From IMG/VR virus record IMGVR_UViG_2029527006_000005: DNA of 64,000 nucleotides. One strand, given 5' to 3'. Made by a program: the position numbers and the translations under genes. The notes below the pieces were generated by a model. The model did not search any database and was not told where the DNA came from. It worked only from the letters and a program-made list of their open reading frames with translations. Shown here one piece after another: positions 46,294 through 48,411 of this stretch. Position 1 is the stretch's first letter. Each line of letters begins with the position of its first letter. This stretch comes from a virus. Lineage: Duplodnaviria; Heunggongvirae; Uroviricota; Caudoviricetes.

Positions 46294-46857
46294 CTATTTT
46301 AGACAGAACCTCATAATGTCATCAAATTCGGCACTATTGATTCTGTATTCGTCGTGAAGTTTAAAGTGGCTTCCATACAACATAAAGATGTTAAAAACTT
46401 CATCTTCAGCAAACTTGTATGTGTTAAATGATTCGTTATCTCCTTTAAATCCAATGAAGGACTTAATATCTTCAGTTACATCAGTACTGTTACTGTAGTA
46501 TAAAACCGTTTTTAACTCACCACTTATTGTATATTTCCTGTACTCACCTTGAACTCTGTTGTTATGGTCAGTATAATATACAGTATTGATATTCCCATTG
46601 TTATAGCGTTCCTCGCTATAACCACCATATTTCACAGAAAAAATGACAGGTTGTTGTGTAGGTCTAAAACTAATCTTTCCTACTTGCTTTCCTTCGTTGA
46701 ACTCAATAATATTACTGAGTTTATTGAAGTCCTTTGTAATTTTATATCCAGTAAAGTAATTCGGTACTTCGTTGTCATTGGGCTTGATAACTGTACCATC
46801 TTTCTGTTTATATGTTACTTCATTCATTGTCTGTGCTTCTCTTTTTGTTATGTACAA
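46294..46857 (-). CDS. Hypothetical protein with MORN-variant-like repeats
   Basis: YNNGNI...GEYRKY..SGELK; true start may be MNEVT at 46827. Confidence 0.6.
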   Translation of the reverse strand: MYITKREAQTMNEVTYKQKDGTVIKPNDNEVPNYFTGYKITKDFNKLSNIIEFNEGKQVGKISFRPTQQPVIFSVKYGGYSEERYNNGNINTVYYTDHNNRVQGEYRKYTISGELKTVLYYSNSTDVTEDIKSFIGFKGDNESFNTYKFAEDEVFNIFMLYGSHFKLHDEYRINSAEFDDIMRFCLK

Positions 46858-46862
46858 TCAAC

Positions 46863-47497
46863 GAATCATTTCACTTCGTTCTATGATTCAGAGAAAGAAT
46901 AATTCAAATACTCACTAGCGTTCGTATTTTAATATTCTTTTCATTGGATTGTACTTTAATTATTGACGAGGTTTGTTGATTCAATTTCATCCCCCCACAG
47001 GGAGGGAAGAAAAATATATTTGACGCTGGTGGTGTCATCATTTCATGTCACGAATTTCATATAAGAACGGAAGCGGGTTGCCCGGTTTCTTCCTATCGCG
47101 GTTCTATGCAACGGTCGTAGTCTTACTACACTAATACAATAACAACATGAACTGTTATTGTACTTATCACTCAAATTCTGGACGGAATAAGGGCTAGCCC
47201 TAAATTACGTCGCACTTGAATAAGGTGAATCCCTTATACATTATGGTAGGTGCGAATCCTATATGTCTATCGTGCCGTGAACACGCCAAGTCCTCTTGTA
47301 TTAATCGACTTGGTTTTAATAGCCGCATTGCCGTGGGTGGTACTAACTATGCCATCTCCTAACGGGTCTCATCTGCTATCGTACTGAATGAACTACTCAA
47401 CTGTCCTCTACATTTTCGAGTGAATCAGGTTATTTAAATTCCCCAGAACGGGGCCATTCAGAATTGAAAAGGGGTAAAGGACACACGCCTTTACCCC
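46863..47497 (-). ncRNA. Candidate large structured non-coding RNA (or R-loop origin transcript)
   Basis: About 630 bp with no credible ORF in a gene-dense genome, more than 10 hairpins, promoter at 47501-47529. Confidence 0.55.
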
Positions 47498-47500
47498 TAT

Positions 47501-47529
47501 ATTATATCACATTTTTGTCACTTTGTCTC
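47501..47529 (-). promoter_or_regulatory. Phage promoter GAGACA-N17-TATAAT
   Basis: Repeated motif; points into the non-coding region. Confidence 0.75.
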
Positions 47530-48411
47530 AGAAATCTGAGCCATAATTTTGTTATGAAAACGTTTATAGTTTTCAATCTCATAGTCTGAAATGAACTTCC
47601 TAGCACTCAAAAATAATGAGTGATCATCCATCCAGAACTGCATACACTTCATGAAAAAATCAACACGCATATGCCACGTTTCAGTACAGCCATGCTCATC
47701 ATCATCAAATACACGCTTCCCAGCGAACAAGTGCTCACTAGTACTGTATTCTTCATACACAGCATCGTCATCATTATAGTTCCGCTTACGTTGCCCTGCG
47801 AACTGCTGAGTGCGGTTAATGCAGTCTGAACCCATCTTGAAGTACTTCACGTACTCCCAAACCACGAACGGATAAACAGCATCGTGAATGTTCTTGTAAT
47901 GCTCACCATCAGGAACAATACTGTAATCAGGCCGTGCGTTCGTCAAGCCGTCATGCTGACTCTCAGAACTTATACCGAACTGGAAGAACCGACCTTCTTC
48001 ATCTTCACCACAAGCCTTACCATAACCATAACGATTATCACCATATCGACACGCTTCATATGCACCTTTAGCAATGCACATCTTACCGCTTTCCATGTTG
48101 TACGCTATGTAATCGTAATCGTAAACACCATCTAACATGTACTGAAACATTGCTTCATCTGGAACATCAATTAGTACTTTGTACTCATTACGATCTAAAT
48201 GACGACAGTACTTGGATATTTTATGTGAAGCTGTTTCTGTAAATGTCATAAGCTCATGTGGATGCATAGCAAAACTTGCACGGTCACTTACATAACCATA
48301 TGGTTCTGCTATACAATCTTCCTCATCACAATCATCTCGTAATGTGTTGAAATCAATTATTAACTGTAATTTCATATTAATCGAAGTTCCAAGATTCTTC
48401 TTCGAAGTCAC
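47518..48411 (-). CDS. Hypothetical protein
   Basis: Start probably MKLQL. Confidence 0.75.
   Translation of the reverse strand: MTSKKNLGTSINMKLQLIIDFNTLRDDCDEEDCIAEPYGYVSDRASFAMHPHELMTFTETASHKISKYCRHLDRNEYKVLIDVPDEAMFQYMLDGVYDYDYIAYNMESGKMCIAKGAYEACRYGDNRYGYGKACGEDEEGRFFQFGISSESQHDGLTNARPDYSIVPDGEHYKNIHDAVYPFVVWEYVKYFKMGSDCINRTQQFAGQRKRNYNDDDAVYEEYSTSEHLFAGKRVFDDDEHGCTETWHMRVDFFMKCMQFWMDDHSLFLSARKFISDYEIENYKRFHNKIMAQISETK

Follow-up and report, generated by a model that had tools for sequence, protein, structure and literature searches.

A large structured RNA element of RaK2/GAP32-like jumbo phages with the layout of a candidate R-loop replication origin

Introduction

The described systems closest to the locus reported here are the RNA II primer of ColE1/pMB1 plasmids, the transcript-primed origins of bacteriophage T4 and the large ornate RNAs ROOL, GOLLD and OLE. 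In ColE1, anchoring is modelled as an interaction between a G-stretch and a C-stretch, and RNA segments that co-vary with a DNA target are known from the IS110 bridge RNA, from the EBS-IBS contacts of group II introns and from the DRT2 ncRNA. The trigger of the persistent hybrid in ColE1 is called speculative in a review. The order of elements in this plasmid is two G6 runs followed by a GA-GC-GTA-GC-GA motif at position 1332, about 150 nt past the second G6 run, and a primosome assembly signal (pas) has been described in the region of this motif (PMC3167613). Phage T4 has at least five transcript-primed origins (PMC3016281). For the jumbo-phage group related to RaK2 and GAP32, which has genes for two RNases H but none for the gp59 loader (PMC5259590), no replication origin is described in the papers searched. 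Here, we present a non-coding element of these phages and compare it with the systems named above.

Results

The locus and its neighbours

The 64,000-nt stretch of DNA that was analysed, hereafter the window, was found to belong to a jumbo phage of the RaK2/GAP32-like type. One copy of a promoter-driven structured element, of a type predicted to yield an RNA of about 530 nt, lies at 47529-46863 on the minus strand. The gap that contains it is 88% identical in sequence to Klebsiella phage fENko-Kae01 and Salmonella phage Munch, and is flanked by the same genes there. It had been singled out in the initial annotation as the longest non-coding gap, and 46858-47517 is indeed the longest internal ORF-free stretch; a further gap, at 1-673, lies at the window edge. 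The upstream gene (47518-48411, minus strand, 297 aa, phrog_15199) and the downstream gene (46294-46857, minus strand, 187 aa, phrog_16210) have no assigned function and are considered neighbours only. The latter is followed by genes for a Dam-type methyltransferase and a nucleotidyltransferase.

The element represents an RNA family absent from Rfam and from the papers searched; fragments of it may be listed in the supplement of a survey of 10,000 viral RNA candidates (PMC10690425). Rfam, with both gathering and E-value thresholds, and ARAGORN gave zero matches, in agreement with the original failure to recognise it as a tRNA, a tmRNA, RNase P or an intron, and the Rfam covariance models of ROOL, GOLLD, OLE, introns and ribozymes likewise gave no match. 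Neither the window nor the annotated flanks around the five Munch copies contained tRNA genes.

Promoter and predicted transcript

A motif match identified the element's own phage-type promoter at 47529-47501 (minus strand), with a -35 box GAGACA, a 17-nt spacer and a TG-extended -10 box TATAAT. It corresponds to the promoter first placed near 47495, the predicted start being at about 47494-47495. An extended -10 precedes 110 of 117 copies, and a -35-type motif is present in 78 of 87. The same promoter type (TGTGATATAATA) also occurs on the minus strand at window positions 1807-1774, 13514-13502 and 50203-50186. In phage CBB, a TGAAACG promoter class is located upstream of DNA-synthesis genes (PMC5259590). 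A Serratia island copy (L234:5300-5400) carries two promoters in tandem. A related copy, L237, has the inner promoter only and lacks the 5' leader, so that pseudoknot 1, described below, is dispensable in some copies (likewise L038, L252 and L346).

The start site is overlapped by a hairpin followed by U4 (47467-47498, minus strand), which the fold and the annotations of Munch and GAP32 designate as a terminator of the upstream gene. For transcripts reading in from upstream, it amounts to -17.8 kcal/mol. Because the predicted start falls inside its 5' arm, RNA born at the promoter would keep -7 to -10 kcal/mol, with the remaining hairpin at a distance from the U run. The caveat that this hairpin may simply end the upstream gene is thus valid for read-in transcripts, but loses force for RNA started within it. 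The hairpin occurs mainly in this orthologous copy and is missing from most others. The predicted RNA of about 530 nt extends over 47494-46963 on the minus strand, with a conserved structured core at 47465-47020; its 3' end may lie at a U-tract (47014-47010) or arise from read-through.

A fold supported by covariation

Folding energy, which the initial annotation had offered as a check, favoured structure for the gap as a whole (z -3.4 on the minus and -5.0 on the plus strand), but the core reached only -2.3 and coding controls as low as -3.0. The z-score was rejected as proof of structure since coding controls score equally well, and the analysis relied on comparison instead. For this purpose, 87-89 non-redundant copies were aligned with MAFFT, and joint changes were counted by parsimony on a tree. 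Many pairs exhibited 9-24 joint tree changes while being 89-100% canonical, and compensatory changes in 87 copies support many helices and four pseudoknots, which answers favourably the covariation check that had been suggested. Helix pairs comprised 377 G-U/U-G against 71 A-C/C-A combinations, which designates the minus strand as the RNA strand.

All the following features are on the minus strand. Pseudoknot 1 joins 47461-47454 to the loop 47391-47384 of hairpin 47396-47381 (87% canonical, with 7 joint tree changes at 47457/47388). The helices 47378-75/47323-20, 47365-62/47334-31 and 47313-08/47280-75, together with pseudoknot 2 (47328-26/47265-63), are 91-100% canonical with multiple compensatory changes. 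A long hairpin (47164-47133) contributes its loop, 47151-46, to pseudoknot 3 (47151-46/47047-42), which, like pseudoknot 4 (47112-08/47081-77), is 100% canonical in 87 copies and shows compensatory changes. Covariation was also found for the helices 47100-96/47053-49 and 47093-90/47072-69. A large, conserved, structured non-coding RNA with a predicted promoter is strongly supported by these comparisons. The module AUAGAUCCGUCYARAAUU (window 47190-47180 and homologues) is located in either of two arms, or in both, depending on the copy, and appears to be a movable tertiary or protein-binding motif.

The palindromes first listed for this gap and its G6 run (46996-46991) are all found in the sequence, but their fate among the 87 homologues differs. 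The stems TACAATAACA/TGTTATTGTA (90% canonical), GTAG/CTAC (98%) and GGAAG/CTTCC (100%) are supported, whereas CGGG/CCCG (63%), AGAAC/GTTCT (69%), AGGGCTAGCCCT (55%) and the suggested pseudoknot TCGCAC/GTGCGA (27%) are not. The proposed long-range helix 47459/47171 is 65% canonical, and 47461-47454 pairs with 47391-47384 instead. CCAAGTC/GACTTGG is present in about 7 copies only, the family register being 47313-47308/47280-47275. The three occurrences of CGAUAG are real, but the first lacks conservation. The four supported pseudoknots, the multi-copy layout and an internal direct repeat had not been noticed earlier.

Distribution in phages

The core matches 73 phage records. Five copies are present in Munch, BF, GAP32, EJP2 and XaC1, four in 121Q and three in RaK2, always on one strand of the genome. 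In six of seven genomes, they are spaced more regularly than expected by chance (CV 0.16-0.32, p 0.001-0.03), the p-values not being independent as the phages are related. The genes flanking the copies vary and one Munch copy faces a convergent gene, which argues against a leader and against a fixed protein partner. Indeed, neither a common adjacent protein nor a shared gene for a recombinase, reverse transcriptase or nuclease accompanies the five Munch copies; only one orthologous copy has an HNH gene in its vicinity, 2-3 genes upstream. The RaK2 7.2 kb copy (L036:2130-3513) is directly upstream of an rI.-1 homologue, which may be coincidence; in T4, rI.-1 has been noted near oriC (PMC3016281).

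A divergent clade of uncultured myovirus-like phages from metagenomes (GC 41-44%; L267, L274, L288, L316, L321, L334, L335 and L351) keeps the 3' half of the element, with a 5' half that is wholly different yet conserved, and has several copies per clade. The expressed ncRNAs of phage PA5oct were rejected as homologues: ncRNA001, 002 and 004 gave no HMM match and the core pattern is missing from the genome. The expressed, ~620-nt ncRNA004 of this related jumbo phage (L417:1117-1735) shows, by eye, a C/G-run hairpin near its 3' end, a near-direct repeat on each side and an AT-rich tract with hairpins, and it is possibly an analogous element.

Two segments that co-vary by identity

The internal direct repeat comprises two segments of the minus strand, 37-90 nt apart depending on the copy. 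Copy 1 (47032-47020; C-N-AYC-(A)-NNGUCAR), a putative RNA guide, is placed in a weak hairpin with AYC mostly in the loop. Copy 2 (46975-46963; C-AA-AYC-NNGTCAR) is a putative DNA target on the template strand. The two co-vary by identity and not by complementarity. At 47029/46971, 49 of the 87 copies have U/U and 38 have C/C, with zero discordant; 9 of 9 tree changes are joint, on a tree made without these columns. At 47032/46975, C/C (75), G/G (7) and A/A (5) were observed. Rare variants at four further positions are concordant except for one U/C, which still fits because it is wobble-compatible. At 47020/46963, the counts are G/G 48, A/A 30, G/A 8, U/G 1 and A/G 0. G/A arose in 6 separate clades and A/G never, as would follow if rG-dT is tolerated and rA-dC is not. 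All pairs with perfect identity and at least two joint changes fall in the register of copy 1 and copy 2. One collecting pattern fixed the invariant bases of copy 2, a bias towards their conservation that leaves the matching at variable positions unaffected. In the divergent clade, for which the collecting pattern excluded these segments, the near-invariant GUCA is replaced by GAAG in both. A bulged A is present in 87 of 87 copy 1 segments and missing from copy 2, and the two segments often disagree at the position next to it.

No complementary partner at a consistent position was found within the element for these segments, and the antisense strand has no conserved extended -10, the only promoter type sought there. 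Identical sequences do not form pairs among themselves, and copies with U/U and copies with C/C co-occur within the Munch genome, which makes binding of both segments by a single protein less likely. From these patterns, the simplest account, and a very probable one, is pairing of copy 1 in the RNA with the antisense strand of copy 2; this strand is most plausibly that of the DNA template. A pyrimidine triple helix for U/U and C/C was rejected, as the segments repeat in direct and not in mirror orientation and concordance for the best purine candidate (47082) reaches only about 78%. Reverse transcriptase template jumping was also discarded: the wobble asymmetry is opposite in direction and no RT gene is adjacent. 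Pairing of the 5' GAUGAG with copy 2 showed zero covariation, in a direct count that was out of register.

G-run, AT-rich tract and downstream hairpins

A C-run/G6 hairpin is located at 47008-46987 on the minus strand (G6 at 46996-46991), with 98% canonical C-G pairing. On the Munch plus strand, five of the seven G6 runs fall in the five element copies. Base composition across copies defines an AT-rich tract, resembling an unwinding element, at 46962-46941 (minus strand); the first 60 nt downstream of the RNA are 73% AT, compared with 60% in the RNA. It is followed at 46940-46865 (minus strand) by two tandem-GA hairpins that are ssi/pas-like and lie on the strand that an R-loop would displace (cores 46923-46912 and 46881-46871).

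In the 150 nt downstream of the copies, the displaced strand has 66 C(GNA)G hairpins, compared with 2 on the opposite strand and 1.6+-1.2 in shuffles, and GA-flanked mini-stems on the non-template strand number 53 against a shuffle mean of 3.2. The downstream hairpin motif was found in 78 of 85 copies. Of the 31 plus-strand hairpin motifs in the entire Munch genome, 9 fall in the 750 nt that these downstream stretches of the five copies comprise together. The motif at 1332 in ColE1 is matched by the same pattern. GNA triloops with sheared G-A pairs are a stable motif of DNA rather than of RNA, and their density rises from 0.07/kb inside the core to 5.2/kb just downstream. As the hairpin patterns were composed after inspection of the data, the divergent clade provides the cleaner test; there, the motif is on the displaced strand in 8 of 8 cases and on the other strand in 0 of 8.

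Chromosomal islands

Single copies were also identified in two E. coli chromosomes and in eight other enterobacterial genomes, within low-GC islands of roughly 8-12 kb where the ends could be placed. These islands contain a serine or tyrosine integrase, the element, often a CI/Cro pair, a membrane-like protein and an LprI protein; a small resolvase-like gene accompanies the integrase in 8 of 8 islands. The variable cargo is mostly defence (DarT, Kiwa, Hachiman, GmrSD, nSTAND3), and att-like direct repeats were found in three islands. The island copies retain the promoter, the matched copy 1 and copy 2, and the downstream hairpins. This family of small integrative defence islands occurs in Enterobacterales (L408-L415, L220) at several chromosomal sites including ffs, with a membrane-like protein of 190-330 aa, and two partition genes of the ParB/RepB type are present in one Serratia island.

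Among the proteins scanned in eight islands, no Rep, primase or capsid match was found, and two helicase-domain proteins are defence cargo. Several island proteins have no family match, and an unrecognised Rep may be among them. One conserved island protein was considered as a Rep and rejected, having a hydrophobic membrane-like N-terminal stretch and no family match. An RNA-only origin would permit just such an arrangement, an excisable element with a resolvase and without an initiator protein.

Discussion

We consider it rather probable that the element is a replication origin of the R-loop/primer type, resembling RNA II in its working without being homologous to it. This reading is based, on the side of the anchor, on the same-base covariation, the asymmetry between G/A and A/G, the lack of a complementary partner and the GAAG change in the divergent clade. 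It is further based on the displaced-strand hairpins, the ColE1-like order, the even same-strand spacing, the islands without a Rep match, the two RNases H and missing gp59 loader of this phage group and the precedent of transcript-primed origins in T4. The initial annotation had left the choice between a ROOL/GOLLD-like RNA and an R-loop primer of the ColE1 or T4 type; the latter fits the new evidence better.

Under the origin reading, the promoter would drive an RNA of about 530 nt, whose four-pseudoknot core, a fold derived from covariation, would display copy 1 so that it pairs, about 40-90 nt further on, with the template strand of copy 2. This pairing may anchor an R-loop across the G-run and the AT-rich tract (46962-46941), the predicted region of the switch from RNA to DNA, and RNase H or 3' trimming would produce the leading-strand primer. 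By analogy with ColE1 pas/ssiA, the displaced strand would form GNA/tandem-GA hairpins on which helicase and primase could be loaded. Since 32 of 87 copies have a hairpin and T5 before the G-run, two variants of the scheme are kept: one in which transcription reads through, as it does in ColE1, and one in which it stops at the U-tract and the RNA then invades. With its three to five co-oriented copies, the 350-kb genome would be split into replication units, and in the islands a captured copy might serve as an origin after excision, perhaps only during phage infection.

Several observations count against the origin reading. The same hairpin and T5, in 32 of 87 copies, make read-through uncertain. 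The predicted hybrid has a length of only about 10 bp and includes a bulge and a loose position (G/U 22, G/C 9), and the core, with its four pseudoknots and many invariant unpaired bases, seems more elaborate than required for an anchor. The three RaK2 copies are unevenly spaced (p 0.23), the base skew of Munch tracks the coding strand with no switch at the copies, and three queries against PLSDB returned zero plasmid copies. Three variants (L344:1125-1598, L315:5-492 and L280:928-1018) keep the structured core and lack the match between copy 1 and copy 2, and that in L280 is also without the G-run; they could be decayed copies or a non-origin subfamily.

A bolder proposal is that the RNA acts as a stand-alone initiator, the folded core of which would open duplex DNA at a site chosen by a short, exchangeable guide and make its own primer end, possibly catalytically, the islands being satellites that replicate via the jumbo-phage RNA origin; we consider this unlikely.

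Pairing of the RNA with its own DNA could also initiate an RNA-catalysed or RNA-guided reaction other than priming, namely nicking, recombination or packaging, since the covariation shows recognition and not priming. The lone paired base past an internal loop (47032/46975) and the invariant unpaired bases resemble a ribozyme substrate site, and the island copy adjoins an integrase. However, no protein is common to the surroundings of the five Munch copies, no intron or ribozyme family matches, and single-stranded hairpins on the displaced strand, which fit helicase loading, are not needed for cutting. Such a reaction seems improbable.

We attach equally little weight to a free, trans-acting ornate RNA, a cage, scaffold or decoy of the ROOL/GOLLD kind in which the repeat would be a tertiary or protein-binding motif and which the islands would keep as a defence decoy. 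The size, the pseudoknots, the own promoter and the several copies agree with such a role, as does the mostly defensive cargo of the islands, and RNAs of this class form cages with unusual A-A helices (PMC12286853). Nevertheless, this leaves unexplained the matching of U/U, C/C, G/G and A/A copy by copy with its wobble asymmetry, the strand-specific DNA-type hairpins and the even same-strand spacing, and no tRNA was found nearby.

It is highly unlikely that what folds is single-stranded DNA, or a leader regulating the next gene: an attenuator-like hairpin does open the window copy, but nearly all copies have a promoter, the downstream genes vary with one of them convergent in Munch, and DNA-type GNA triloops are concentrated after the core and not in it. 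Equally remote is a functionless by-product of local gene conversion or slippage, which the short distance between the segments (37-90 nt) might favour and which would have erased the copy 1-only bulged A and the often discordant position next to it.

If the origin reading is correct, the element would represent an independent RNA solution to the start of replication, common to lytic phages and to mobile islands of their hosts, and would provide a function for a large ornate RNA, a class mostly without one. The comparative data name the exact bases of the proposed RNA-DNA anchor.

With regard to known systems, the element differs from guide-type ncRNAs in that its putative target is its own downstream flank and in that the phage copies share no adjoining recombinase, reverse transcriptase or nuclease. 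Like ROOL, GOLLD and OLE, it is large, multi-pseudoknotted and phage-associated, and, as in GOLLD, the 3' half is conserved and the 5' half variable. In contrast to these RNAs, which are often near tRNA islands, it has no tRNAs nearby and no Rfam match, and its evenly spaced paralogues show signs of acting on their own DNA.

The resemblance to ColE1/pMB1 RNA II is one of layout. In both, a promoter situated about 530-550 nt upstream precedes a protein-free structured RNA (here predicted), of which an upstream segment recurs identically in the non-template strand further downstream; a G6 run is located towards the 3' end, and the displaced strand then carries a GA/GNA hairpin (pas/ssiA in ColE1), a likeness at the motif level only. 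The ColE1 repeat consists of two identical G6 runs, whereas copy 1 and copy 2 have a different sequence; the ColE1 anchor is a G run and the putative anchor of the element a variable mixed sequence of ~11 nt that co-evolves with its target. The element also differs in its four pseudoknots and in its several copies in lytic phages, with none found on a plasmid. Directly ahead of the second G6 run, ColE1 (L389:1168-1180) contains CTCGTCAG, the commonest ending of copy 2; this identity is probably due to chance, as the family HMM finds no ColE1 homology at E<=50. An RNA I counterpart was not found, by Rfam match or as a conserved bottom-strand extended -10, the one promoter type covered. Judged from its sequence, the element resembles RNA II in layout but is not a member of that family, since neither homology nor RNA I was found.

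As in T4 oriF and oriG, there are several proposed origins per genome, with a phage promoter and an AT-rich tract, and RNase H, UvsW and gp41/gp61 are present in the phage group of the element. In the element, the promoter and the AT-rich tract are separated by 500 nt of conserved structure. The T4 origins comprise about 100 bp, have no common motif and form R-loops without a specific sequence, whereas the element combines a conserved 500-nt fold with a putative sequence-matched anchor.
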